Sequence record: PV636260.1
Length of the DNA: 48,147 nucleotides
Direction: 5' to 3' (one strand)
Source: a phage
Position 1 is the stretch's first letter. Every line of letters starts with the position of its first letter. Shown here piece after piece: positions 1-46,971 of this stretch. The notes beneath the pieces are model-generated. The model was given only the letters and a program-made list of their open reading frames with translations. It was not told where the DNA came from and ran no database searches. Both the position numbers and the translations under genes were made by a program.

Positions 1-127
1 ACGACTGGTCTATTTATAAAAATGTAGACTCTGAGCCGCCAAGCGGTTCCGATTCTTCAGGCGGCAGGATTGATTCAAAATTCAAGGTTGGTGAAGTTGA
101 TAAGTACAGATCCTCTTTCGAATTGCA
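1..127. repeat. 127-bp terminal direct duplication (identical to 48021-48147); circular closure or assembly overlap
   Basis: Positions 1-127 match 48021-48147 base for base; an ORF reads continuously across the junction. Confidence 0.9.
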
Positions 128-899
128 GGGAGGTAATGAAATAGATATATGGACAAGGATAACAACAATCAATGACAGATATAAGCAGGGCGCGGCAACG
201 TGGGATTTCAAACTGGACGGAAAGTTGATTTTTAACAAGGGTCTAACACCAAATGCAACTGGATATGCTCCAGGTAATACCTATTTGACATTGGCTAACA
301 CATGGATGAGTTCTTCGTACAGCGGTTATATTGGTCTAGTTGGTGGCGGCGTTGGTTTATCCAACGGCGGTTGGAGGAATTTTATCTCTCTTGGTTCGCT
401 TATTTTTCCAGGTAGTTCTCACCCCGTGGCGGTAATATCTCAGGTGTACGATTATGATATAGCTTCAGGTAATCAGCCAAACGGTGACATTGTAAGGAAT
501 ACATCGTTCAACGCTGAGAGTTACGACATAACGTTTGGGAATAACTCAGGTACTGTCAACTATATATTTTCCAAGTCTCCAGTGTCAGATGAGAGACTTA
601 AAAGCGACATAAAGGATATTGAAACAAGATTGGCGCTTGACAATTTGATGAAAATGAAATACCGATCATTCACATACAATTATGACAAGGAGAAAACTGT
701 AAGGAGAGGGTTCATAGCTCAACAACTTATGAGCATAGATAGTCAGTACGTTAGAAAGTACGGAAATATGAATGGAGAAGATTACACGCTATCACTGGAT
801 GAGAATGTTCTTTTGCTTGACGCTATAGCTGCGATACAGGAGCTTTCAAAGCAAGTATCTTCTCTAAAAGAAGAAATAAAATCACTTAAACAATCATAA
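1..899 (+). CDS. tail fiber protein, C-terminal part (intramolecular chaperone / peptidase S74-like domain); 5' part is 47072..48147
   Basis: In frame with 47072.. across the junction; C-terminus SDERLKSDIKDIE...AIAAIQELSKQVSSLKEEIKSLKQ resembles the autoproteolytic chaperone domain of phage tail fibers/endosialidases. Confidence 0.8.
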   Translation, partial: DWSIYKNVDSEPPSGSDSSGGRIDSKFKVGEVDKYRSSFELQGGNEIDIWTRITTINDRYKQGAATWDFKLDGKLIFNKGLTPNATGYAPGNTYLTLANTWMSSSYSGYIGLVGGGVGLSNGGWRNFISLGSLIFPGSSHPVAVISQVYDYDIASGNQPNGDIVRNTSFNAESYDITFGNNSGTVNYIFSKSPVSDERLKSDIKDIETRLALDNLMKMKYRSFTYNYDKEKTVRRGFIAQQLMSIDSQYVRKYGNMNGEDYTLSLDENVLLLDAIAAIQELSKQVSSLKEEIKSLKQS

Positions 900-902
900 A
901 GA

Positions 903-928
903 AAAGCCCCGCAATGCGGGGCTTTCTT
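903..928. terminator. bidirectional intrinsic terminator between converging tail fiber and ssb genes
   Basis: Hairpin AGCCCCGC-AAT-GCGGGGCT flanked by A-run and T-run. Confidence 0.7.
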
Positions 929-929
929 A

Positions 930-1346
930 TCAGAATGGGATATCATCGTCAAATGTTGACTGAGGGTTCGGTTGTGGTTGTTGTTGAGTTCGCTGTTGTT
1001 GCTGAGGCGATCGCTGTTGTTGATTGCTTTGTCCTCGTTGACTGAATACCAGCTTAGGAAAATCAGCGGCCTGCAATGAATTGTAAACCGTTCCGTTGTG
1101 CTCACGGGATGAGATCTTCAACGTTTCGCATGATACAGATATAACTCGACCAACTTGGAACGCTTCACGATACCAGTCAGCAAGGCCAGGCTTTCCACCA
1201 TCACTAAAAAAGAATGTGTAGTTGGTGTATTCTCGATCGCCATCACGAGGTTTATAGCTCTCTGCCAGTTCGATGATATAAGTATTGCCGCCGTTACGCT
1301 CCAGAATCTTAGGTTCTTTGCGGATCTCGCCAGTGATAATATGCAT
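930..1346 (-). CDS. ssb: single-stranded DNA-binding protein
   Basis: RBS AGGAGAG before ATG; Q/P-rich linker and C-terminal acidic tail DDDIPF typical of SSB. Confidence 0.85.
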   Translation of the reverse strand: MHIITGEIRKEPKILERNGGNTYIIELAESYKPRDGDREYTNYTFFFSDGGKPGLADWYREAFQVGRVISVSCETLKISSREHNGTVYNSLQAADFPKLVFSQRGQSNQQQRSPQQQQRTQQQPQPNPQSTFDDDIPF

Positions 1347-1392
1347 GTTTTTCTCTCCTAAAATTTATGGGCGACCGAAGCCGCCCTGATGA

Positions 1393-2040
1393 TTATTCGA
1401 AGTTGGTGATTGATTGAGATTGTACAGGCTTCGCGCTCGTTGCTTCAACCTGTTTTTTCTGTTCCGGTTGTGCCGGGCGAATACCGCGAGCTTTACCGAT
1501 CTCAAACTTAGCCTTAAGTGCGTTGTAGTGATCCTGAATGATTGACTTGCTTGCCGTGTCCGTCTGTCGGTAAGCGTTAGCCCATACCTCTTTCAGTGAT
1601 TCGATATCTTCACACGCATCAAGTTCTTTCTTCCAGTCCTTGACAGATTTTACTGCAAGCTGAGCATCGTCATCACTCTGGCTAATCCCCAGCGCTGCGG
1701 CTAATGAGTAACGTCGAGCATACGTCATTGCGGAACCTACGCCTTGCGGATCGCGCTTTGCAATCGGCATCATCATGAAGAATTTGGCCCACTGCCCGGA
1801 TTTGTGAATAAGCATCGTTTCAAGATGGAAAGTTGTTTCAGTGCTGGTATCCAGCATTGATTGCAGGATCATAATATCGTTATCTGTTAGTGCTGGGCTT
1901 ACTGCCGCCATCATTGCATCAAGAGTTGCATATGAGTTTTTCAGGTGATTGTTTTTAGCGTCCTTCTTTGCTTTCGCGAATTTGTTGCGAGCATTGAACA
2001 GTGCAGGAAGGATTTCGTTTGTTTCTGGTGATAATTGCAT
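1393..2040 (-). CDS. erf: Erf-like single-strand annealing recombination protein
   Basis: Start moved to internal ATG at 2040 with RBS CAGGAGAAG; sequence character of ERF-family annealing proteins; sits between ssb and exonuclease. Confidence 0.7.
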   Translation of the reverse strand: MQLSPETNEILPALFNARNKFAKAKKDAKNNHLKNSYATLDAMMAAVSPALTDNDIMILQSMLDTSTETTFHLETMLIHKSGQWAKFFMMMPIAKRDPQGVGSAMTYARRYSLAAALGISQSDDDAQLAVKSVKDWKKELDACEDIESLKEVWANAYRQTDTASKSIIQDHYNALKAKFEIGKARGIRPAQPEQKKQVEATSAKPVQSQSITNFE

Positions 2041-2114
2041 ATTAACTTCTCCTGATTGGTGTATGAGGTGCATTATAACACCTCATTAATTATTTGTTTA
2101 GCTATTTGTGCCGT

Positions 2115-3179
2115 TTACTTATTTTGGTAACGCACCCATGATGGCGTTTCAAGTTCGATCTCGCTTGCGTCGCCAGCGTACCCAGGCCAAATATCCATTT
2201 CAGAGCAAGCCTTGTAAGTGTGGACTACGCTAATGTACTGGTTACGACCGATCCTGATTTGCTCCATAGTCATACGGTAAGCCAGTGCGATATAAGGCTC
2301 TTTTTTCTCCTGCGCAAGCAATCTAACTACGATCGGGATATCTTCAGGGAAGTTGCCTTCAAAAGCGCCAGCCTGGATTGCGCGTCGTAGCAGATCATGC
2401 TGCAAGGCCATTTTCAGATAATACCCGTGATTATATGCAAGGCGCGGGAACTCCAACGGATTTGCGCTCATCGTTGTTTTGAAGTCGGTGATAATCAGTG
2501 CTTCCGGGAAAATAACGTCTTCGAATACCGGATCTCCATTCTCATCATAACCAGTCAGCACACGACCTGGTACATTCTCTTTGTAGTCCAGATGGTCAAG
2601 TCTAACCTTAACCTTTACGCCGGATATCTCACCGAAGATTGAGATCTCACGCTGCGCAGTTTCGCTATTGATGCACGCTTCATGATCGGGATTTTGCTCA
2701 AGAATGGCCCTCATCTTCATACAGGCATCATATTTATCAGCGTCAACCAGTTGCTTTCCTTCAGCGCGCGCCTCAGCTTCAGCAATCAGTTCAATAAGAT
2801 ATTGAACATTGAGATCTTCACCGCAATCAACCATCATTTTGATGAGGTCAGGGTACTGCTTACCGGATGTACCTTTCAGGCCAAAAGATTTTAATTTTGC
2901 TGCCAGTGCCGTTTGCGAAGTAATAAGATCTTTAAACTCTGACGGAGCAGGACAACGCGCATACGTTGCAGTAAACAGATCTCGACTCTCAAAGTTAGTG
3001 TGCGACTGAGTACCGAACTCCAGCGCTTTCGTTGTCTCATTCTTCTTGAATCGCCAGTTAGCTGGGCAAGTTTGATAAATTTCTGCAAGGCTCGATCCGC
3101 TTACATACTCTGCCGCCCAACCTTCGTTGCTATGATACTCGTCATTAGAAAGCTGACTTGATGTGAATACCTGGAACAT
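2115..3179 (-). CDS. recombination exonuclease, PD-(D/E)XK (YqaJ/lambda-Exo-like)
   Basis: RBS AAGGAG; motif ITDFKTT and surrounding acidic residues typical of YqaJ-type nucleases; adjacent to erf and ssb. Confidence 0.7.
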   Translation of the reverse strand: MFQVFTSSQLSNDEYHSNEGWAAEYVSGSSLAEIYQTCPANWRFKKNETTKALEFGTQSHTNFESRDLFTATYARCPAPSEFKDLITSQTALAAKLKSFGLKGTSGKQYPDLIKMMVDCGEDLNVQYLIELIAEAEARAEGKQLVDADKYDACMKMRAILEQNPDHEACINSETAQREISIFGEISGVKVKVRLDHLDYKENVPGRVLTGYDENGDPVFEDVIFPEALIITDFKTTMSANPLEFPRLAYNHGYYLKMALQHDLLRRAIQAGAFEGNFPEDIPIVVRLLAQEKKEPYIALAYRMTMEQIRIGRNQYISVVHTYKACSEMDIWPGYAGDASEIELETPSWVRYQNK

Positions 3180-3210
3180 TGCGCTTATCTCCTTCGTTTA
3201 CGATGAATCC

Positions 3211-3238
3211 ATTATAGCCATTAACAGCGTTTAGTCAA
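3211..3238 (-). promoter_or_regulatory. sigma70-type promoter for the exo-erf-ssb operon
   Basis: On minus strand TTGACT - 16 bp - TATAAT, about 30 nt upstream of the exonuclease RBS. Confidence 0.65.
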
Positions 3239-3647
3239 TCGGATACATGTAATTGGTGTGTAATAGCGTGTCTATATCGCTCAAGTTACAATCAGCATCA
3301 ACAGAATCAATGGCTTAATCCTGTTTTTATGTGGTGTCTATTTCGTAATACTTGTAACCGCTTTTTCTTAGAAATACACAGATATCCATGAATAGAATCA
3401 AGATTGATTATATTTTGAACAAATATGATAGAAATTTGACGAATCAATCAAATCACCTGTTACACGATATACAACTGTTACACAACAATAATTATATATA
3501 TAAAGCTAAAATTAAATATTATCTATCTATATATATTATATAGAGTTTTTATCATATCTCCCTGCGGTCGAATGAGGTCGATTTTGTAACACACCTCCCG
3601 GTTACAAAAATAGACACCTGTTACACGAAAAAATTGTAATCGAACTA

Positions 3648-3676
3648 TTGCAATAAAAGTAAATGCGACATACAAT
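3648..3676 (+). promoter_or_regulatory. sigma70-type promoter for the cor-like/RBP genes
   Basis: TTGCAA - 17 bp - TACAAT, about 30 nt upstream of ATG 3706. Confidence 0.6.
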
Positions 3677-3705
3677 GCAATCACACTAAAGACGAGGACA
3701 CACGA

Positions 3706-3936
3706 ATGAAAAAGTTAATCACCATTATCGCCGCCGCGTTCATCCTGACTGGTTGCGCTCAGAATCTTAAGAATGGCGACTGTGTTACTTACGCTTACGG
3801 ATCTTGCATGATGCGATTCGTTGACGGTCAGAAAGTGCCTGCTGGCGAAATCGATATGCGATTCAAGGGTCTGTCATCCGACGACGATCAGGGCAACTTT
3901 AGCGGCAAGGTGTCAATCAAAACTAAAGAGTGGTAA
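3706..3936 (+). CDS. small outer-membrane lipoprotein, Cor/Llp-like superinfection exclusion candidate
   Basis: Signal peptide with lipobox LTGC (MKKLITIIAAAFILTGC); 76 aa; sits next to receptor-binding locus downstream of J. Confidence 0.65.
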   Translation: MKKLITIIAAAFILTGCAQNLKNGDCVTYAYGSCMMRFVDGQKVPAGEIDMRFKGLSSDDDQGNFSGKVSIKTKEW

Positions 3937-3938
3937 TT

Positions 3939-4895
3939 ATGGGACAAGGAATATATATAAACCTAAACGACGGTCGCCCGGCAATGGAGATAACTTCGGG
4001 TCTTCGCGCACCGTCATGGTGCGGACCCATACAGGCTGACGGGGTTGATTCATCTGGATCGGTGTTTGATTTTGGTTTGCAAATGAGTCCAGGGTCTACT
4101 GCTTTTTGCCTTCCATCTCAGGCTATCTACATAGACGATATGGATTACATCCCGGAGGTGTATTATTTGACTAGTTTTCAGAAGGTAAATGATTCAACCG
4201 GACGAATAACGGTAGGTAATTTTAACGGGCACGGTGGAAGGAGGATGAGATTTTATGGAAACTGCTACGAAATCCTCCCCGCTCAAGCTGGAAATCAGGG
4301 GATACTTGTTAACGATTCAACGAACTTCGCAGCTATACCGAATAACGCCAGATTGATGAGCGCTGCATTTGTTGGGGGGATTCAGGTTAACGGTCAGGCT
4401 CAGTTGCCAGTACAGGGCGTTCCTTTCGGTATGTGGGATAATCCAAACGTAACACTTGAATCTGACGGCAATACAATATGGTGCAGGGATGCAAACTATA
4501 ACGGGATTGATGACGTTGGCGCTAGCGTATACGTGCAACTCGTAATATTTAATAACACTCCACCACCTCCTGGGCTAGGAATAACTATGAGTAACCCTGC
4601 TGGTCAGATCGTTTTCTCAAGCGTTAGACGCCCATTCGTTCTTGGCGGGACTATGGCGATAAATGATGGTTGGCAGTGGTGCGGTGGATTTTTCCCAATA
4701 CTGAGAACAGGTACGATATGCAGAGTTACGGGTGGATATAATAACATTCGATACAAGGGAGTTTGCATGAGCGGCGGTAACGTGAGAAGCGCACCCGGAA
4801 CAAGGGTGGGTAACTATTCTACTCAGAGCGGCGCTCAATTTCCCTTCAATATAAACATTTCAATGCCAATTCCTTTCACTCCAAACATGTATTAA
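3939..4895 (+). CDS. putative receptor-binding protein (distal tail protein)
   Basis: ATG 3939 after RBS AAAGAG; 318 aa, Gly/Asn-rich with PPPP linker; position between cor-like gene and J, converging on J. Confidence 0.5.
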   Translation: MGQGIYINLNDGRPAMEITSGLRAPSWCGPIQADGVDSSGSVFDFGLQMSPGSTAFCLPSQAIYIDDMDYIPEVYYLTSFQKVNDSTGRITVGNFNGHGGRRMRFYGNCYEILPAQAGNQGILVNDSTNFAAIPNNARLMSAAFVGGIQVNGQAQLPVQGVPFGMWDNPNVTLESDGNTIWCRDANYNGIDDVGASVYVQLVIFNNTPPPPGLGITMSNPAGQIVFSSVRRPFVLGGTMAINDGWQWCGGFFPILRTGTICRVTGGYNNIRYKGVCMSGGNVRSAPGTRVGNYSTQSGAQFPFNINISMPIPFTPNMY

Positions 4896-7900: not shown

Positions 7901-8372
7901 CAGTCTCAAACGAACCACCATCAACCGCTTGCTGCACTTCGTACTCAACGCGAACTCCGTTTTTATCACCGTTGCTTTCAATTCGTACTCCGCGTGGCAT
8001 AAACATTTTTATACGTATTGCCGATAGCGTTTTATTGGTTACTGATATTGAGTAAGGATTATTGGTAGTAATCTCACGGTTTACAGTTACCTCGCTTGAG
8101 CTATCTTCCATTCCTTTTATGTATTCCTGAGTCTGAGTTCCCGATCTGAACTCTGCTGTTACTCCTTCAAAGTTGAATGATCCGTCCTCGTTCTGCACTG
8201 GTACAGAGTTGAACATCAACTGCCTAAGGTCGAATTTATCGTCAATCTCACCATCAGATATTGCTAACAGGATCTTAATCTTGTTGATTGAGATCAGGTT
8301 ATCTTCCATTTCTTGAGGTTTGTGAGGTTTTGGTGAACCACCTTTCGATCCGCTTATCACTTTTTGAATCAT
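4923..8372 (-). CDS. central tail fiber / tail tip protein, lambda J-like
   Basis: 1149 aa; size, position after gpI, and C-terminal region typical of J-like host specificity proteins. Confidence 0.85.
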   Translation of the reverse strand: MIQKVISGSKGGSPKPHKPQEMEDNLISINKIKILLAISDGEIDDKFDLRQLMFNSVPVQNEDGSFNFEGVTAEFRSGTQTQEYIKGMEDSSSEVTVNREITTNNPYSISVTNKTLSAIRIKMFMPRGVRIESNGDKNGVRVEYEVQQAVDGGSFETVLTDVIEGKTMSGYDRSRRINLPNFNNQVIFRIVRKTPDSDNSNVVDAIQVKSYAEVIDAKFRYPLTGLLFVEFDSKMFPNQLPTISIRKRWKIVNVPSNYDPESRTYNGNWDGTFKKAWTNNPAWVLYDLMINQRYGLDQKELGISVDKWALYEAAQYCDQMVPDGKGGTEPRYLCDVIIQSQTDAYKVIRDICSIFRGMSFWNGESISVIIDRPREPAYIFTNDNVVNGDFSYTFASEKSMYTTCNVMFDDEQNMYQQDVEPVFDREATLRFGNNVTSITAIGCTRRSEANRRGRWILKTNLRSTTVNFATGLEGMIPTIGDVVAIADNFWSSNLTMNLSGRLLEVSGSQIFLPFRVDARAGDFIIVNKPDGKPVKRTISSVSADGKTIEVNIGFGFPVKPNTVFAIDRTDIALQQYVVTKIDKGDDDEEFTYKITAVEYDPNKYDEIDYGVNIDDRPTSIVEPDQIPRPENVQVSSESRIVQGMSVETMIVSWDKVPYAVFYDVQWRKDDGNWQNVPQTANKEVYVEGIYAGNYQVRVRSVAGSGTTSGWSNIVAATLTGKQGEPGRPINLTATDDVVFGIRTKWGFSDGSGDTAYTELQQSPDGTVDNASLLSLIPYPQHEYYHSPMPGGNIVWYRVRTVDRIGNVSQWTDFVRGMASTNVDDIIGEISVDIENSPGYKWLVDNATDNAAQNAANAEAAIENALANDKDAIYMKKENGKRKAEYTKSLKLIADETQARVTAIEQLKASFGDQISASNSELREVIATETGALSREIDQLRAEIGDDIQASLTDIREAIANETEARTQADLSLSARLGDNEAALSQKLDSWSNADSTGAMYGVKLGLKYNGQEYSAGMAMSLIGSGAAAKAQILFEASRFAIMTGMNGQTQYPFVVENGQVILSSAIIKDGFITNAMIGNAIQSNNWDGNQGWHINKNGAAYFMNATVRGALYANNGSFAFNGTNNTVQINNNGITVNLPNGGRVVVGVW

Positions 8373-25104: not shown

Positions 25105-25332
25105 TCACGATAATCGTCGTTTAATGCCTTTAGGGTGGGTCTGAGCTTTAGAGTAGCAGTGAGCAAGGTCGCCAGTCATTTCCCATTGATCCTTCTTAGG
25201 CGAGTAGGTCAGCCATACGCCAGTTTTATCTTTTGCTTCCGTAGCCATCATGAACGCTACAAGAACGAAGCCAGAAAATAAACCAGCACCAAAAATAACG
25301 ATACAAGCGATAATCCATAAAAAAATTTCCAT
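25105..25332 (-). CDS. small membrane protein
   Basis: RBS AAGGAGA; one strong TM helix (IFLWIIACIVIFGAGLFSGFVLVAFMM). Confidence 0.6.
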   Translation of the reverse strand: MEIFLWIIACIVIFGAGLFSGFVLVAFMMATEAKDKTGVWLTYSPKKDQWEMTGDLAHCYSKAQTHPKGIKRRLS

Positions 25333-25333
25333 G

Positions 25334-25519
25334 TTAAATCTCCTTAATTAATTCAATGTTTATTTTGTGAGTGTCAAGGTTTGCGCCGGAAAGTTTTTTG
25401 GCTTTCGTGATGGCTTCTGCCTGACTGGTTGCTGATAATTCAGTCTCGAAAGATTGTTTGCATGATTGGCAAAACATCCCCATCTTTCGAATGATTAATT
25501 TAACTTTGAATCGCTTCAT
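25334..25519 (-). CDS. hypothetical protein
   Basis: ORF in operon context. Confidence 0.5.
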   Translation of the reverse strand: MKRFKVKLIIRKMGMFCQSCKQSFETELSATSQAEAITKAKKLSGANLDTHKINIELIKEI

Positions 25520-29689: not shown

Positions 29690-29973
29690 GGTCTAACCTT
29701 CCTGTAAGGCTTGATTGATAACATCACGTATTGCGTGAAGTCGCATTCTTGCTCGTCATACCCGCGATTGATGTATGGCGTCACATCGGTAACATCGGAT
29801 ACCCTGGCGTGAACTTCCCACCCGGTAAACTCACCGCGATCGAACTCGCGTAGCTCCAGAATATCGCCAGGCCGGAAGTTTCGATCATTGACGCGGAACT
29901 CTGCCGTTTTGGTGCCGTTCATTACTCCAATAAAATGTACCGTGTTGATCTTAAGTTTGTGAATATTGCTCAT
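29686..29973 (-). CDS. ASCH-domain protein
   Basis: GxKxxExR signature (NGTKTAEFR) near N-terminus. Confidence 0.55.
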   Translation of the reverse strand: MSNIHKLKINTVHFIGVMNGTKTAEFRVNDRNFRPGDILELREFDRGEFTGWEVHARVSDVTDVTPYINRGYDEQECDFTQYVMLSIKPYRKVRP

Positions 29974-30163
29974 CTTCCTTCACCTCGAATGTTACGTTCC
30001 AAAATTTATTGCCGCAAGAATGATAGGTTACGTCATGCGGAGTTAGTTCGTGCAATGCATGACCGATGATTTCCATGCGATCGTTCGGTGCCAGGCATCG
30101 AAGTGATTCACGAAGGCGTGAAGCCTTGTCGTAAATCTGCCACTGCGTGAGTCGTGTAGCCAT
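29951..30163 (-). CDS. hypothetical protein (start revised to ATG 30163)
   Basis: Strong RBS AAGGAA before internal ATG; the track start is a TTG. Confidence 0.45.
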   Translation of the reverse strand: MATRLTQWQIYDKASRLRESLRCLAPNDRMEIIGHALHELTPHDVTYHSCGNKFWNVTFEVKEDEQYSQT

Positions 30164-30173
30164 AGCTAATTCC

Positions 30174-30251
30174 TTATTTGCAAAATGGGCAGGTTGATTT
30201 ATTTCCGCTGCCACCATGATTAGGGCAGCACAATTTCTCAATTGGCGTCAT
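30174..30251 (-). CDS. 25-aa Cys-rich mini-protein (not in ORF track)
   Basis: RBS GAGGAA 7 nt before ATG; MTPIEKLCCPNHGGSGNKSTCPFCK; stop TAA overlaps the next RBS. Confidence 0.35.
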   Translation of the reverse strand: MTPIEKLCCPNHGGSGNKSTCPFCK

Positions 30252-30285
30252 AACTGATTCCTCTGATTGGTTGCCATGCTTCAAT

Positions 30286-30335
30286 AAGGCCACTATATCA
30301 AATGGCCTTGCGGAAGGTTTAGCAATTCGTGCTAT
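30286..30335 (-). promoter_or_regulatory. repeated element plus hairpin with TATAGT
   Basis: ATAGCACGAATTGCTAAAC; hairpin AAGGCCA-N10-TGGCCTT. Confidence 0.55.
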
Positions 30336-30481
30336 CGTTTAACACACATTGTTTTTACTTCGTATCCGAACGGCTTGTTTTCTGCAATTACTTCACGAGC
30401 TTTGTTACATGATTGCTGACTCTCCATGTATACGTGATCCGGCCCGGTGCTCATCAGTATAATCAATACCCATGCAGCCAT
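30332..30481 (-). CDS. 49-aa hypothetical protein with hydrophobic N-terminus (not in ORF track)
   Basis: TAATG coupling to upstream gene, RBS GGTGA; stop TAG is the TAG of the repeated element. Confidence 0.4.
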   Translation of the reverse strand: MAAWVLIILMSTGPDHVYMESQQSCNKAREVIAENKPFGYEVKTMCVKR

Positions 30482-31865: not shown

Positions 31866-32441
31866 TTACTTCTCCTCATCCAGTAAATGCGAGCGGAATT
31901 GCTCGACCAGCTTGTTGAGATCGGATACCGAGATATTGCTGCCTTCAAAATCCCTCAAATCGATTCTGAACGCTTCAACCTTCGCATTGAACACGTCGGC
32001 TATGCTCTTTCGCTTCCGACCTCTCTTGCCCTGTTTAGCTTCGCATATGACCTTCTTCGCTTCCTCACCTTCTAGTTCGGTTATGAATATCGTCACCCCG
32101 TCAACCTGATCGCGGTTGATTCGCACAGATACGGCCTTATTGTGCACCTTGAGCATGTGGCGCTTGATGATATTGGACACATACGACGCGGTGAGTCGTT
32201 CTAGCAACCAGGCTGATCGAGATGTGTACTCGTTAACGACTGCCTCATCAATCTGGTCATCGTTAAGTTCCACGCCATGAGTAGCCTTTACAATCTCGGC
32301 CTGCTCATTGACGTACACTTCAACCATTTGCTTTCCGGTGATTGAGAACTCATTCCCTGATTGGTTGATTTCAATCGCCTTTCGAATATAGTCCGGCAGG
32401 TTGAGTTCAAATTCTGTCACTTCTTTAAGCTGAGTTTTCAC
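31866..32441 (-). CDS. hypothetical protein, first gene of the leftward early operon
   Basis: GTG start after GAGGT; 191 aa. Confidence 0.5.
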   Translation of the reverse strand: MKTQLKEVTEFELNLPDYIRKAIEINQSGNEFSITGKQMVEVYVNEQAEIVKATHGVELNDDQIDEAVVNEYTSRSAWLLERLTASYVSNIIKRHMLKVHNKAVSVRINRDQVDGVTIFITELEGEEAKKVICEAKQGKRGRKRKSIADVFNAKVEAFRIDLRDFEGSNISVSDLNKLVEQFRSHLLDEEK

Positions 32442-32489
32442 TTGTCTATACCTCGTTGTCTATGGTTGTAACTTTCAACTTCGAAAAAC

Positions 32490-32519
32490 ATGTTACAGCT
32501 ACAACGTCAGATGCGTCAA
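32490..32519 (-). promoter_or_regulatory. candidate sigma70-like leftward early promoter
   Basis: Minus strand TTGACG - 18 bp - TAACAT, about 50 nt upstream of the first gene. Confidence 0.35.
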
Positions 32520-32851
32520 TGTCTATAGCTGCATTTTTTATTTTTGTAACCAGTGCAACCGATGCAACCGACTTTTTCTATAAAAGTAAGAACATCTATT
32601 TATGCGCGCGGAATAGTATGTTTTTTATACTATGCATCACGAAATATATGCCACCCTCAAAAAATGCGGTTGCACCTATTACGCCGATTACATACCAATA
32701 TATAATATAATAAATAAATAAATATATATTATCTATCTTATTATTATATATAGATATTTTATTATCTATAGGCCTATCGATTCTCTGGCCATTTTGTAAC
32801 ACCCCTGATGGTATACAACTATTACGACAATTACAACTAACGCATAGACGA

Positions 32852-32871
32852 ATAGCACGTTTTGCTAAAAA
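32852..32871 (+). promoter_or_regulatory. copy of the repeated element within the large intergenic region (no obvious -10 at the usual spacing)
   Basis: ATAGCACGTTTTGCTAAAAA. Confidence 0.4.
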
Positions 32872-33221
32872 TGGAGATGACCACCAGGCGAACTGGGTAA
32901 CACTAAATCCCCCCTCTCACAATCATTGCAATCTAAGCAACAAATCAACCAACTGTTGCACACCATGCAACAATCACATTTCATCATTCGAGATCAATCA
33001 TGATCGTAATTATTCCAGATATTCCAGTATTGATGGAATAATGAGCAATTATTGGAATAGCATTTTTTGCCACACATCAGCCCTGCCGATCGGGTATGAT
33101 TCATCTCATCAACCAATCAGAGGAGATTTGCAGTGAAATTAATCTGGTCGCTATTCGACGGTTCCGGCCTTGCAGGTCATGAACTTAACTTTGCGCGATG
33201 TCTTCCGTTTTGAGGTGATGA

Positions 33222-33749
33222 ATGATTTGGCACGATTACTTTACATACAATCCGAAAACTGGAAAGCTGTTCTGGAAAGAAAGAAAAGATATACACAAAT
33301 CAAGAGTTAAACAATGGAATGCTCGCAATGCTGGTAATGAGGTTGGCTCTTTGGGTAGTGGTGGCAGATATTTAGAAACTACACTTACTGTAAACGGAAA
33401 ACGTTATAACCTGAAAGTTCATAGAATATGCTATGAAATGCACTATGGCCCAATACCTGAAGGAAAGGCGGTTGATCACGTAAATCACATCACGACTGAT
33501 AACAGAGCAATAAACTTTGAGTTAAAAGATCATAAAGGAAATATGCGAAACACATCAAAACAGAAAAACAATACAAGTGGCATACCAGGTGTGCATAAAA
33601 ATAAACATGGCAAATGGGTTGTAAGGATTGGAGGGGGAAAGCGAGGGAGGAGGATTTACATAGGGTGCTTCTCAAGTTTTGATGATGCGATTTCCGCAAA
33701 GAAAGCAGCTGAATATGAACATGGATACCATGAAAACCACGGCAAATAG
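33222..33749 (+). CDS. HNH endonuclease with C-terminal AP2 DNA-binding domain
   Basis: HNH core VDHVNHITTDNRAINFEL; AP2-like SGIPGVHKNKHGKWVVRI...IGCFSSFDDAISAKKAAEYEHG; RBS GAGGTGA. Confidence 0.7.
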   Translation: MIWHDYFTYNPKTGKLFWKERKDIHKSRVKQWNARNAGNEVGSLGSGGRYLETTLTVNGKRYNLKVHRICYEMHYGPIPEGKAVDHVNHITTDNRAINFELKDHKGNMRNTSKQKNNTSGIPGVHKNKHGKWVVRIGGGKRGRRIYIGCFSSFDDAISAKKAAEYEHGYHENHGK

Positions 33750-36342: not shown

Positions 36343-36394
36343 ATAGCACTTTTTGCAAAACGCGTGTACCATTGGCGGTGTATCATTCACACCG
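36343..36394 (+). promoter_or_regulatory. repeated element (ATAGCACTTTTTGCAAAAC) plus hairpin with TATCAT
   Basis: Followed by RBS AAAGGAG and start at 36416. Confidence 0.5.
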
Positions 36395-36415: not shown

Positions 36416-37984
36416 ATGTTTAATATTAAGCCAAAACTGAATTACCAACAGATTATTGAGATCGCAAATAGCACTGGAGTTAATCCGGTGGCGATCGCAA
36501 TTCGTGAAAACAGCTATGGGGATTCAGTTTCGTTTTGGCAAGATCCGATCGATATAAACAGTGGAAACGATAAGTTCCCGCTGATTTCGTTAGGTGGCGA
36601 TAACCTGGTATTCGAATATGCAAAGGCAAAGGCTGAGTCTGTACAGTTCCCTGTTTCGTCTGCGTACGCTCATTTCATTGGGTGCATCTCAGCCGCGATG
36701 CTCGGGAAGTTTTGGGTGCAATATCACGGAGAAGAGCAACCGACAGCTCTTTACATGGTGATTAGCCAGCCACCTTCAACGGGTAAATCCGCGATTAACT
36801 CAGCGGCAATTACACCTATGCGTGCAGAGATTCAGCGACTGAATGAAGAGCGAAAAAAGGAACGTATCCGCTTAACCAGTCAGCTACGTCAGGTCGAGAA
36901 GGAAATTAAAAACGACCCGAAGGGTAACACGACGGCGGCGCTGTACGAGGACAAAGAAAAACTGGAAGAGAAGATCAAGAAGATGGCTGATATTGTTTTC
37001 GCGGTATCAGATCCTACACCTGAAGGTCTAGCGAAGGTAGCTGCTGTTCAAGGTCATTTCTCCGTAATCTCTGATGAGGCGACAGCAATCAATACATTGC
37101 TCGGCCTGACTTATGGTGGTTCAGACAAGAAATCAAATAGTGAGCTTATCCTTAAGGCGTGGGATAAAAACCATATGGAGGTGGCGCGTTCCAACCAGGA
37201 TAACAACTTGTCCCTTTGCCCGGTCGGTTCCATCTGCGTTATTGCGCAAGATGAAACAATCAAGGGCATCATGGACGCAGGCCAACGAGGCATCGGCGTA
37301 TCTGAGCGTTTCCTTTTAGTTCGTGAGGAACCGCTTTTAGGTACTCGTATTCTTTGTGATGAAAATGGTGATGCGCTGTATAAGGAAGTCGATCGAGGAT
37401 TGGTGAGTAAATATTATCGACTCGTGCACAACATCATGAAAGAGGATAACGTTGTTCTCTATGTAAGCCGTAATGCTATGCGTGAATTAAACCTTGCGCG
37501 TCAGGCGATGGAACCGGATTTCGCCGCAGGTGGGAAATACTCTCACTCAATGCTACGCGGTCATCTCGGCAAGTTCGATAAGCACGCCTTGCGTATTGCT
37601 TCAGTTCTCCACACGATCAAGAATTGGGAGGGTGAATCACCGAACCGTTCCAACCGTGAGATTGACCTTGAAACAATGCAAGAAGCGATCATGATTTTCA
37701 ATGAGCTTTCCAGGACTTATCTGTCGTCTGCCAGCGCTGCCGGGTATGCTGGTGATGAGGCTGAATCTCGTAAGCTGATTGATGTTATCACTGAGATCGC
37801 AAAGAAGAATAAAGGGCGCGCTCCTATTCATAGCATCGTTGCAAAGTGCCGGAACGTTACGCCGTTCAACGGTCAACAGAAAGTATCTGAGCGAATCGAC
37901 AGCCTGCTGATCACGCTCGAAGAGATGAACTACACTTGCCGCATTGATGATATTGTTTTCATCAATCCTAGACTGATGGGTTAA
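36416..37984 (+). CDS. putative ATPase with degenerate Walker A (QPPSTGKS)
   Basis: Start moved to ATG 36416 after AAAGGAG; the track start 36353 lies inside the regulatory element. Confidence 0.55.
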   Translation: MFNIKPKLNYQQIIEIANSTGVNPVAIAIRENSYGDSVSFWQDPIDINSGNDKFPLISLGGDNLVFEYAKAKAESVQFPVSSAYAHFIGCISAAMLGKFWVQYHGEEQPTALYMVISQPPSTGKSAINSAAITPMRAEIQRLNEERKKERIRLTSQLRQVEKEIKNDPKGNTTAALYEDKEKLEEKIKKMADIVFAVSDPTPEGLAKVAAVQGHFSVISDEATAINTLLGLTYGGSDKKSNSELILKAWDKNHMEVARSNQDNNLSLCPVGSICVIAQDETIKGIMDAGQRGIGVSERFLLVREEPLLGTRILCDENGDALYKEVDRGLVSKYYRLVHNIMKEDNVVLYVSRNAMRELNLARQAMEPDFAAGGKYSHSMLRGHLGKFDKHALRIASVLHTIKNWEGESPNRSNREIDLETMQEAIMIFNELSRTYLSSASAAGYAGDEAESRKLIDVITEIAKKNKGRAPIHSIVAKCRNVTPFNGQQKVSERIDSLLITLEEMNYTCRIDDIVFINPRLMG

Positions 37985-37988
37985 TGAT

Positions 37989-38396
37989 ATGCTGCTTCTT
38001 TTAGATCTGTTCAGGTTCTGCGAAGGTTACGACAAATACACTCGACAGCACATAGCGAAATTTATATACGCCCACAAGGAAAGTGAGCGATTTGCTAAGG
38101 CCGCAGGAATGACTCGTCGTGAATTTACAAGCGCGCTATCTAAGGAGTTTTGCTCACGCTGTGTAACTGAGGGTTATCTTGATTGCAGGGATGGGTTTTA
38201 CTGGTGCAAGGGAAAGATTAAGCGCCCGGTAATGATGAAGCTGATGTGTATTGATGGCTACAACAATCGGTATACGTGGGAAATGATGCACATTGGAGAG
38301 ATGAGTGATGAGGATTTGTTTGGCGAACGTAGAAACATTGATAGATCGGAACGTCGAATTGTGCGCAAGGCTCCAGCTTACGAAAGAAGAATTTGA
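37989..38396 (+). CDS. hypothetical Cys-rich protein
   Basis: CSRCVTEGYLDCRDGFYWCKGK cysteine cluster. Confidence 0.5.
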   Translation: MLLLLDLFRFCEGYDKYTRQHIAKFIYAHKESERFAKAAGMTRREFTSALSKEFCSRCVTEGYLDCRDGFYWCKGKIKRPVMMKLMCIDGYNNRYTWEMMHIGEMSDEDLFGERRNIDRSERRIVRKAPAYERRI

Positions 38397-45521: not shown

Positions 45522-45974
45522 ATGAGTATTCAACGTATCGCAGAGTCAACTGGTGAAATCGATAAACGTCACATCAATGGTAACAACGGAACACGGCGCG
45601 GTAAAGATAAAAAGCCTCGACAGCGTTGCGGGTTCTATATTCATAAAGAAGAAACACGCGCCGGACTGCGAGCGCGACTTGATGCTCTTATCGAATATTA
45701 CGGCGGCCCTGCGGCCTGCGCAAAGGCTCTAAAAGTTAGCAATCAGACGGTGCAAGGCTGGAAAGATCGAAATATGATTTCATGGCAAGGCGCTGAAGCT
45801 GCGCATCGCGCTTACCGCCGACAGGGGTGCAAAGGATTTCGTGCCGCATGGTTGCGATTCGACCTGAAGTTTGACGGTAACGGCAAGTGCCTTGAGAAGC
45901 GATGCAAGAACAAGAAATTTATGCGCGTCGTGAAGAAGGAAGATATCGGAACTACCAATAGCATTTTTAGTTAA
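45522..45974 (+). CDS. putative DNA-binding regulator (Cro/YdaS-like HTH)
   Basis: RBS AGGAGA; HTH-like AACAKALKVSNQTVQGWKDRNMIS; Cys/His and basic residues. Confidence 0.5.
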   Translation: MSIQRIAESTGEIDKRHINGNNGTRRGKDKKPRQRCGFYIHKEETRAGLRARLDALIEYYGGPAACAKALKVSNQTVQGWKDRNMISWQGAEAAHRAYRRQGCKGFRAAWLRFDLKFDGNGKCLEKRCKNKKFMRVVKKEDIGTTNSIFS

Positions 45975-46035: not shown

Positions 46036-46971
46036 GTGAACGAAGAATTTATGATGTTTCAGAAAGAGGACGTTTTGCCGTACATGAAGGGGTTATGGCG
46101 CGAGGCTTTCCAATCAATCTGCGGATTGCCGAATGATGTTTTTAATAAGAAGCACCAACCTTGCCCCAACTGCGGCGGTAAAGACCGCTTTCGCTGGACC
46201 GATAACTTAAACACTCCTGGCGACGGCGGCGCGATCTGCAACTCATGCGGGAACGACTCCGGGATCGGGTGGCTAATGAAATTAACTGGTATGCCGTACA
46301 GTGAATGTATAAACATCCTGGGGAGATTTCTCGGCAAGGTTCCGCAGGAATACATTGTTAAGGCAAACAAGAAAGCACGCAGGACTCCGGTATCTGGTGT
46401 CAATGTCATGATGGCAGATCATGAAGCGGTGATGAAAGTCATGGAGCGTACAGAGAAGCGCGTAAACACACCTCTAAGCATGTTTGAATCTCTACCTACT
46501 GAATCATTCGACGTTGGCGTAAAACGTCGCGAGGATGGCGGCGAGAGCGTATTTCACACCATACCATGTCAACTTGTACACGAGGACGGTCTTGATGATG
46601 AGTTTTGTAATATTTTGATTATTGATGAGGAGGGTAGGGAGTCATTTTACGCTAAGAAATACACAAGTTGCTCGGTTGCCGTGACTGGTAAAACAGAAAA
46701 AGCGATCTACTTATGCCTTAATTGGATTGATGCTCAGCATATTGCATTTCACACAAAGCAAGAGGTATGGGCCTGCTTCACTCCTGAGAATCTGGAAATG
46801 GTTGCATACAGATATAAAGGGGATCGAGAAGTAAGGGTTGCGTGCGAACCTTCAGACAAGGAGACTTTATACATGGCAGACGACCGACAATTAAAAATAA
46901 TCATCCCAAATCCTGGAGGATACCGCTCAGGAATGCAAGCCAAGTTATTCTCAGCAAGTGACCTACTCTGA
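46036..46971 (+). CDS. DNA primase with N-terminal zinc-binding domain
   Basis: CPNCGG...CNSCGN zinc ribbon; acidic IIDEEG motif; next to the helicase. Confidence 0.7.
   Translation: MNEEFMMFQKEDVLPYMKGLWREAFQSICGLPNDVFNKKHQPCPNCGGKDRFRWTDNLNTPGDGGAICNSCGNDSGIGWLMKLTGMPYSECINILGRFLGKVPQEYIVKANKKARRTPVSGVNVMMADHEAVMKVMERTEKRVNTPLSMFESLPTESFDVGVKRREDGGESVFHTIPCQLVHEDGLDDEFCNILIIDEEGRESFYAKKYTSCSVAVTGKTEKAIYLCLNWIDAQHIAFHTKQEVWACFTPENLEMVAYRYKGDREVRVACEPSDKETLYMADDRQLKIIIPNPGGYRSGMQAKLFSASDLL

Follow-up and report, generated by a model that had tools for sequence, protein, structure and literature searches.

Two related AT-rich, repeat-flanked modules in the intergenic gaps of a T1-like phage genome, candidate replication origins of which one adjoins the putative pac region

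The sequence record PV636260.1 (48,147 nucleotides, referred to as the window) is the whole genome of a Tunavirus (T1-like) phage. Two of its gaps are considered here. Region A (32442-33221) is bounded by a leftward gene (31866-32441) and a rightward HNH endonuclease gene (33222-33749), and region B (3180-3705) lies between the gene for exonuclease VIII (2115-3179, minus strand) and that for a cor-like lipoprotein (3706-3936, plus strand). Together they make up 2.7% of the genome, and both have a G+C content of 37%, compared with 45% for the genome. BLAST of region A with its flanks matched 75 phage records, all of them T1-like coliphages and Shigella phages (Drexlerviridae, mostly Tunavirus). 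In T1, the counterpart of region B is 29851-30377 and that of region A is 48675-48836 plus 1-538; the deposited T1 sequence begins and ends inside it. A first-pass annotation, made by a model from the sequence alone, had described region A as a non-coding region with repeats of its own that is related to region B. As best explained, region A combines several cis-acting elements and lies where a T1-type genome has its physical left end. It consists mostly of known kinds of elements, together with one conserved origin-like module pair, of which module A lies in region A and module B in region B. The modules and their parts are as follows (positions are those of the window).

32543-32842, no strand: module A, a paralogue of 3351-3650, with repeats, AT core and repeats; candidate replication origin (alignment statistics, repeat map, pairing)
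3338-3650, no strand: module B, flanked by the promoters of exo (3238-3211) and cor (3648-3676)
32545-32571, plus: three tandem 9-mers, TGTAACCAG, TGCAACCGA and TGCAACCGA (sequence)
32613-32633, no strand: palindrome ATAGTAT-GTTTTTT-ATACTAT (sequence)
32673-32696, plus: left direct repeats CACCTATTACGCC and GATTACATACC (ATTACG 32678, ATTACA 32687, 9-bp spacing)
32697-32770, no strand: AT core of module A, 74 bp with four G/C (95% A+T), candidate DNA-unwinding element
32791-32802, minus: inverted GTTACA repeat ATTTTGTAACAC right of the core, with an identical 12-mer in module B at 3581-3592
32812-32842, plus: right direct repeats ATACAA 32813, ATTACG 32821 and ATTACA 32830 (repeat map)

The modules resemble each other over about 320 bp. 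A local alignment of 32688-32818 with 3478-3607, on the same strand, scored 71, compared with 24.4 ± 3.1 for dinucleotide shuffles (maximum 39; 0/300 reached the score). A global alignment of 32530-32850 with 3338-3650 gave 60% identity and a score of 137. Shuffles confined to 30-nt blocks, which preserve the local A+T profile, scored 63 ± 11 (maximum 93, n = 300). The AT islands at 3458-3566 and 32670-32786 are the sole extreme ones in the genome. The sequence TTGTAACAC has two copies in 48 kb, at the matching place in each module, and 11 of the 29 genome copies of GTTACA fall within regions A and B. Given the alignment scores, the AT islands, the shared 12-mer and the clustering of GTTACA, the similarity of region A to 3500-3625 is therefore real, and it is about three times longer than first noted. 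The suggestion of two related control regions or origins holds in that the two are genuine paralogues kept as a pair, but the paralogy covers only the left ~300 bp of region A (32543-32842), and the origin role is a candidate one. Of the repeats counted in the first-pass annotation, TGCAACC, put at about five copies, has three exact ones (32554, 32563 and, inverted, 32668), with five for the hexamer TGCAAC. TTACAACT, said to occur twice, has one exact copy; TACAACT is present twice (32814, 32832).

The layout of the modules is parallel: two or three direct RTTACR repeats, the AT core, one inverted repeat and three direct repeats. The direct repeats are spaced 8-10 bp apart on both sides of the core in A and in B, as in an iteron array, and both arrays have an adjacent AT-rich element (the core of B, 3487-3552, is 66 bp long and 91% A+T). 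To the left of the core, the repeats of A correspond to CACCTGTTACACG and CAACTGTTACACAAC in B, where the array reads GTTACA (3459), ATACAA (3469) and GTTACA (3477). To the right, the 12-mer ATTTTGTAACAC is unique to modules A and B and stands at equivalent positions (inverted GTTACA in B at 3585, minus strand); the direct repeats of B that follow are GTTACA (3601), TAGACA (3611) and GTTACA (3620). The tandem 9-mers of A are located ~120 bp left of the other repeats, and B has a single unit, TTGTAACCG, at 3351. The TGCAACC repeats are limited to this lineage, and other Tunavirus have different tandem 9-mers at the same spot. Tandem 8-9-mers at this spot include GTGTTAATC in T1 (three copies), TGTCTAGC in LeonhardEuler (two), TGTATAAGA in L076, a phage of a neighbouring genus, and TGTTCACG in TLS (two). 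The exo promoter (TTGACT-16-TATAAT, 3238-3211) is near-consensus (11/12). Because the promoters of the flanking genes adjoin those genes, the central ~300-400 bp of each gap is extra cis DNA.

Two small open reading frames (ORFs) in region A, 32456-32710 (plus) and 32596-32802 (minus), were considered and rejected as genes. They span the AT core, they are unannotated in the closest relatives, and the alignment between A and B is rich in indels. A LexA-box-like sequence, CTGTATATATA(A/C)ACA(G/T), is found ~60 nt left of the AT core in region A of T1-, LeonhardEuler- and L076-type relatives, at the position that matches 32613-32633; the palindrome here is unrelated. L076 carries it at 4540-4559 as CACTGTATATATACACAGAA, a perfect CTGT-N8-ACAG, and T1 (L006, ~346-366) as TACTGTATATATAAACATGA. 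It is also present in the relatives L003, L054, L056 and L060.

The pairing of the modules is widespread. In every tested genome with both modules available (25 genomes from several genera and two subfamilies), the genome's own A matches its own B. Eleven Tunavirus, including T1, gave pairing scores of 43-78 compared with ~23 ± 3; the neighbouring genus (L076 against L020) scored 96, and TLS, which belongs to the other subfamily, scored 63 against 23.6 ± 2.8. Further same-contig pairs of other genera matched in 12/12 cases, with scores of 43-96. In most Tunavirus relatives, homology to this genome is undetectable left of 32852, yet the match between the AT cores of their own A and B persists. 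The positions are also conserved. A single strong AT island is found 3.3-5.5 kb upstream of the gene for the DUF3987 helicase in nearly all helicase-anchored loci that no contig end interrupts. In region B, the AT core stands ~280-300 bp away from the start of the exonuclease gene; this holds for nearly all of the 46 loci compared. When 15 modules, drawn from both positions and from many lineages, are aligned, they have a common core consensus, ATATA-TATATATAA-ATAAATAAAC...TATAT-ATATA, which the AT core of A fits. The repeats in that alignment all end in ACA(A/C), and their 5′ parts are genus-specific: GTTACA, GATTACA, GTGACAA, AGTTACAT, GAACA/GAAAACA, and TCTTACC in Klebsiella-type phages. 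Repeats that vary by genus within a constant layout and core are the pattern expected of binding sites for a phage-encoded protein. These comparisons support the view that the A/B pairing is kept by selection. Duplicated origins or control regions stay the leading class of explanation because A matches B within every tested genome. Both the paralogy of the modules and their conservation across the family appear to be undescribed in the searchable literature.

We also tried Citrobacter phage HCF1 (L083, NC_054897) as an unbiased module count and rejected it. Only B was found, and the count is uninformative because the junction of the record's ends, visibly mis-assembled, holds duplicated and inverted sequence. 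Its last ~400 bp hold a tandem duplication and then an inverted copy, and it lacks the divergent gap that would carry pac and module A. The ends of the deposited genome seem to be mis-assembled or incomplete.

The remaining features of region A and its right-hand neighbour are of other kinds.

32442-32530, minus: leader and candidate leftward early promoter of the phrog_11083 gene (consensus scan, 9/12)
32850-32871, plus: orphan copy of the 21-nt direct repeat (DR) of the T1 family, aaATAGCACnnnTTGnTAAAA (motif match)
32895-33010, no strand: conserved block around the pac end (T1 ends, conservation, AATC statistics)
33012-33058, no strand: operator-like repeats, ATTCCAG twice in direct orientation (33012, 33021) and TGGAAT twice on the other strand (33034, 33053) (sequence)
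33054-33100, plus: rightward early DR-type promoter, GGAATAGCATTTTTTGCCA, 22 nt, then TATGAT at 33095-33100 (motif and -10)
33133-33213, plus: what is left of a Dcm-like C5 methyltransferase gene; its first 18 codons, VKLIWSLFDGSGLAGHEL, agree with the gene of relatives apart from the start codon
33222-33749, plus: HNH endonuclease gene (PF13392, E 1e-13)

Tunavirus relatives share 32852-33132 at 80-94% identity, whatever adjoins it leftward. The pac site of T1-like phages has been placed in this untranslated gap (PMC7718038), and that of TLS was mapped by restriction analysis, with the TLS record starting at the homologous place (PMC11447400). In alignment, the two ends of the T1 record, positions 1 and 48836, fall on 32971 and 32972, respectively, and its repeat_region 1..2800 starts there. 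The end of the first headful and the start of the terminal redundancy are thereby placed, by homology only, at 32971|32972. Other relatives' records end at the equivalents of 32884, 32904, 32918 and 32984. Six copies of AATC, all on the plus strand, fall within 116 bp, the highest density genome-wide, and ATCA recurs every 10 bp at 32973, 32983 and 32993. A palindrome, GTTGCA-CACCA-TGCAAC (32955-32971), ends exactly at the T1 boundary. In TLS the sequence of the block differs, and an AATC-rich array is still at the same place, in line with co-conservation with the small terminase, which belongs to the P22 gp3 family. From annotation and homology we infer that the AATC block is the putative pac recognition and cleavage region, with packaging leftward. 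A small terminase of the P22 gp3 type would be expected to bind the AATC/ATCA array, with its ~10-bp phasing, and the first headful would run leftward from ~32971. No usable pac coordinate could be taken from published PhageTerm analyses of relatives. Satellites that mimic the T1 pac or origin were sought by BLAST in E. coli genomes and plasmids, with 32540-33134 as the query, and zero matches resulted.

The 21-nt direct repeat aaATAGCACnnnTTGnTAAAA was described in TLS and noted in T1, Rtp and Rogue1 (PMC11447400). The genome has 13 copies, including those at 32850 and 33055, all oriented with transcription, and in 10 of the 13 a -10-like hexamer lies exactly 22 nt downstream. Since TTGnTA stands rigidly 22 nt from the -10, it is no ordinary -35. 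The copy at 33054-33075 starts 79 nt before the start codon, has its -10 and is followed by a Shine-Dalgarno sequence (GAGGAG, 33120-33125); its distance to the start codon agrees with the ~76 nt given for TLS (PMC11447400). At the copy at 32850, the best match to a -10 at the fixed spacing is 2/6, and no gene lies behind it. The orphan regulatory element that had been reported at 32852 is real, with 32850-32871 a perfect copy of the family motif, and it is a true orphan because the -10 is lacking. This copy is the left edge of the block common to all Tunavirus, and the homology of most relatives starts at 32852. A second breakpoint, the 3′ end of the HNH replacement described below, falls on the next DR copy at 33742. 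Since both breakpoints fall on copies, the comparison suggests that the 21-nt repeats may also act as recombination joints for modular exchange among T1-like phages. In six of the 10 DR promoters (28165, 28685, 31612, 34208, 35841 and 36341), the -10 lies in the loop of a strong hairpin; the stems differ from copy to copy, with fold z-scores of -3 to -5.6. This pairing of promoter and stem-loop is reminiscent of the T4-type "PeSL" cassettes.

The ATTCCAG and TGGAAT repeats listed by the first-pass annotation are present as two copies each. They are kept in Tunavirus, L076 and Klebsiella-type phages, and the last TGGAAT overlaps the rightward promoter motif. Because the repeats abut a DR-type promoter, their arrangement suggests an operator. 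In TLS (L080 and L081 joined), two tandem 14-bp palindromes, AGACCAATCGGTCT, stand upstream of the rightward DR promoter in their place, which points to a lineage-specific operator at a conserved position. Beyond the promoter, region A is not wholly non-coding to 33221, as had been stated, since 33133-33213 is a 26-codon remnant methyltransferase ORF. It starts with GTG, compared with ATG in relatives, and after the 18 matching codons it runs for eight more to a stop on the ribosome-binding site of the HNH gene. The HNH gene replaced a methylase body of ~630 bp (relatives L001 3336-4040 and L003 2784-3488), and homology resumes at the DR at 33742. The rightward operon is thus led by HNH in this genome, as first described, but the HNH gene is a lineage-specific secondary insertion, and in relatives the operon starts with the Dcm-like methylase. 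Six relatives (L053, L054, L055, L059, L062 and L063) have 134-219 bp of additional sequence separating the methylase start from the rightward promoter (between the equivalents of 33124 and 33134), annotated as a small hypothetical gene in some records.

On the left, the candidate leftward promoter has a -35 of TTGACG (32519-32514), an 18-nt spacer and a -10 of TAACAT (32495-32490, minus strand). A TGTTACA repeat (32491) overlaps the -10, as is also the case in T1. At this position, the sequences of T1 and LeonhardEuler-type relatives read TTGACA-16/17-TAACAC/CACAAT. The gene that would be transcribed (31866-32441, minus) belongs to family phrog_11083, with weak matches to DUF7174 and AcrF2, and co-varies with the left half of region A. 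For its product we found no relative in the PDB and no signs of DNA binding. An Rfam scan of the whole window found no family at gathering score, and thus no match to a structured non-coding RNA. A third, weaker AT-rich spot occurs at 25309-25370 (T1 8042-8111; 48/60 A+T), amid small early genes that lie upstream of those for terminase, and has no similarity to either module.

T1-like phages have no DNA polymerase and encode a primase (annotated as P4 alpha-like in the T1 record), a superfamily 2 RadD-like helicase and a DUF3987 protein. DUF3987 proteins are classed as MCM-related superfamily 6 replicative helicases that carry a winged helix-turn-helix at the C terminus (PMC4889955), and one of them was shown to unwind DNA (PMC11724360). 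In this genome the protein is encoded as follows.

36416-37984, plus: DUF3987 MCM-like helicase with a C-terminal winged helix (PF13148)

The start merits a remark. The mechanical ORF begins at a TTG at 36353, and homologues and alignment support the ATG at 36416 (522 aa). A structural model built with 38 homologues has a predicted local distance difference test (pLDDT) of 89 and a predicted template modelling score (pTM) of 0.87, and its top 17 PDB fold matches are all MCM subunits; a PDB search by sequence returned nothing useful. In the model, the last 70 residues (447-516) form a helix-strand-helix-helix-hairpin with local matches to winged helices. Across the family, the protein varies most in its N-terminal 60 residues, in residues 151-180 and at the winged-helix end. 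Just downstream, at 37989-38396, is a gene for a small protein of 135 aa that is annotated as helix-turn-helix (HTH) in TLS. A Cro-like HTH regulator gene is located at 45522-45974 and the primase gene at 46036-46971.

These features are consistent with modules A and B being dual replication origins, a reading to which we give a probability of roughly 45%. Origin activity and protein binding to the repeats are what we infer from their sequence. The repeats to the left and right of the core would be occupied by a phage DNA-binding protein. For this reader, the MCM-like DUF3987 helicase is the most economical candidate; it would act by way of its winged-helix domain, perhaps with help from the small HTH protein whose gene lies just downstream. 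On the model, the helicase is a candidate trans-acting factor for the modules. The AT core would then melt, the helicase and the phage primase would be loaded, and host DNA polymerase III would replicate the genome. We rank two origins first because a symmetric array with a meltable core suits the loading of ring helicases on both sides, and because an origin of the family is unreported. Papers on T1-like phages report no origin of replication (PMC11447400; PMC7718038), and a literature search for T1 replication or transcriptome data found nothing relevant.

Several observations weigh against this interpretation of region A. Neither region has a match within one mismatch of the DnaA box TTATNCACA, and the IHF consensus has a single copy, in region B only. 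(That copy, a perfect AATCAATGGCTTA at 3305-3317 between the exo promoter and module B, is one of four in the genome.) In a flank-only matrix of shared 7-mers, in which A-B sharing within a genome was compared with that across other genera, an excess, which would mark a shared reader or gene conversion, was clear in three of 14 genomes (L097/L020, 38 vs. 11; T1, 22 vs. 13; L156/L041, 24 vs. 16) and absent in PV636260.1 (17 vs. 15). Because the excess is clear in only three, co-evolution of the repeats with one trans-factor is not generally demonstrated, and a co-variation of repeats and reader, to which the genus-specific repeats and a peak of helicase divergence in the winged-helix domain would point, is at most suggestive. 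The direct repeats of this genome also differ, ATTAC[AG] in A and GTTACA in B. Tunavirus helicases are 99% identical to one another, yet the A-side repeats of these phages vary by lineage (GATTAACA/GTGTTAATC in T1, GTGACAA/CTAGACA in LeonhardEuler-type phages and ATTACR/TGCAACC here, with B constant). The helicase as the sole reader of all the repeats therefore fits poorly, and more than one protein may read them. As to the physical left end, the argument from T1 coordinate 1 rests on GenBank annotation, and several other records were probably oriented by copying T1.

Transcriptional control is the main rival account of the modules. The RTTACR repeats would be operators or enhancers for a phage regulator (e.g., the Cro-like HTH protein) and the AT core a bent or UP-like element; together they would switch two operons in step, the leftward early one (A) and exo-erf-ssb (B). 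We regard this as possible, although on balance unlikely. Both modules are upstream of leftward operons, with the core ~290-340 bp from the first start codon, and the phage does encode a Cro/HTH regulator. The operator-like repeats beside a promoter in the right half of region A indicate that regulation by repeats is in use. The overlap of TGTTACA with the candidate leftward -10, here and in T1, suits an operator equally well and counts among the points against origins. However, the exo promoter, at 11/12, lies ~100 bp beyond the module, a 74-bp block of 95% A+T with symmetric flanking repeats is atypical of phage operators, and the layout is kept in genera with other types of flanking promoter. 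It is improbable that the modules are structural sites for nucleoid- or packaging-related proteins (H-NS, IHF, Fis), or anchors for injection or condensation, with no direct role in initiation. The extreme A+T content with its many TpA steps, the perfect IHF consensus in B at 3305 and the place of module A inside the terminal redundancy, adjoining pac, would all suit such sites, but module B is ~19 kb from pac (nearest circular distance) and has no AATC block, and genus-specific repeats favour a phage-encoded reader over a constant host protein.

The paralogy could also be the functionless relic of an old intergenic duplication, with the similarity left by slow drift of AT-rich sequence or by recombination. 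Sharing of repeats between A and B is at noise in many genomes, as this would lead one to expect. Nonetheless, we consider a relic very improbable, as both copies are present in the same order and orientation in every tested genome of two subfamilies despite the mosaic flanks of A, and the core consensus is common to both copies in all lineages. The first-pass annotation had itself named chance similarity of AT-rich DNA as the alternative to a relationship, and both gaps are indeed AT-rich. A low-complexity artefact has next to no probability when both alignment scores exceed the highest of their shuffles (71 vs. 39; 137 vs. 93), a unique and identical 12-mer stands at equivalent positions, and the pairing recurs in 24 other genomes. 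Chance is excluded as the origin of the A/B similarity.

Dual origins thus remain the reading that we rank first. Its extension to all Drexlerviridae is doubtful and put forward tentatively: two origins of one type, one beside pac in the terminal redundancy and one beside the recombination operon, each a symmetric array of repeats around an AT core, on which the DUF3987 helicase would assemble via its winged helix. T1 belongs to the seven classical T phages and is notorious for contaminating laboratories and fermenters. If true, the reading would give the first origin assignment for this classical phage, and a bacterial-virus example of MCM-type origin recognition without ORC/Cdc6. With two short, sharply bounded and family-conserved modules, the question of the T1 origin becomes directly testable, and the modules define what engineered or rebooted T1-like genomes must retain. 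The 780-bp gap is resolved here into three elements: a pac region, early promoters and an origin-like module. The distinction matters for annotation, for the choice of genome start and for the reading of mosaic breakpoints.

The modules can be compared with iteron-flanked AT-rich origins that are read by a helicase-initiator, e.g., the ori of Staphylococcus aureus pathogenicity islands (SaPI), which is bound by Rep. Common to both are short repeats flanking an AT-rich stretch of 70-80 bp, a repeat sequence that varies while the layout is kept, and an own helicase and primase. In contrast, the helicase here is the MCM-like DUF3987 protein and not of the SaPI Rep type, and each genome has two modules. 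Two separated cis elements with the same initiator-binding repeats are found in SPP1 (oriL/oriR) and in P4 (ori/crr). The T1-like genome resembles these in that it is a small pac-type phage genome with a widely separated pair of related cis regions, both AT-rich and bearing repeats. SPP1 and P4 differ in having a known initiator (G38P and alpha, respectively), with one site in or next to the initiator gene, whereas only candidate readers can be named here, and the direct repeats of A and B are slightly unlike (ATTACR vs. GTTACA). We do not claim membership of the iteron-origin class for the modules.

Neither the pac region nor the DR element is new to the T1 family. As in P22-like headful packaging, there is a gp3-family small terminase, a T1 terminal redundancy that starts at the site, record ends spread over ~100 bp and an asymmetric array of short repeats; unlike the pac of P22, which is inside gene 3, the region occupies a gap devoid of genes, ~8 kb away from the genes for terminase. 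The authors of the TLS study placed pac in the homologous gap via AGATTT, the complement of AAATCT (PMC11447400). Both DR copies in region A (32850-32871 and 33054-33075) match the T1/TLS repeat. The second is oriented with transcription as in TLS, whereas the first, without a -10 or a gene, marks a recombination boundary.

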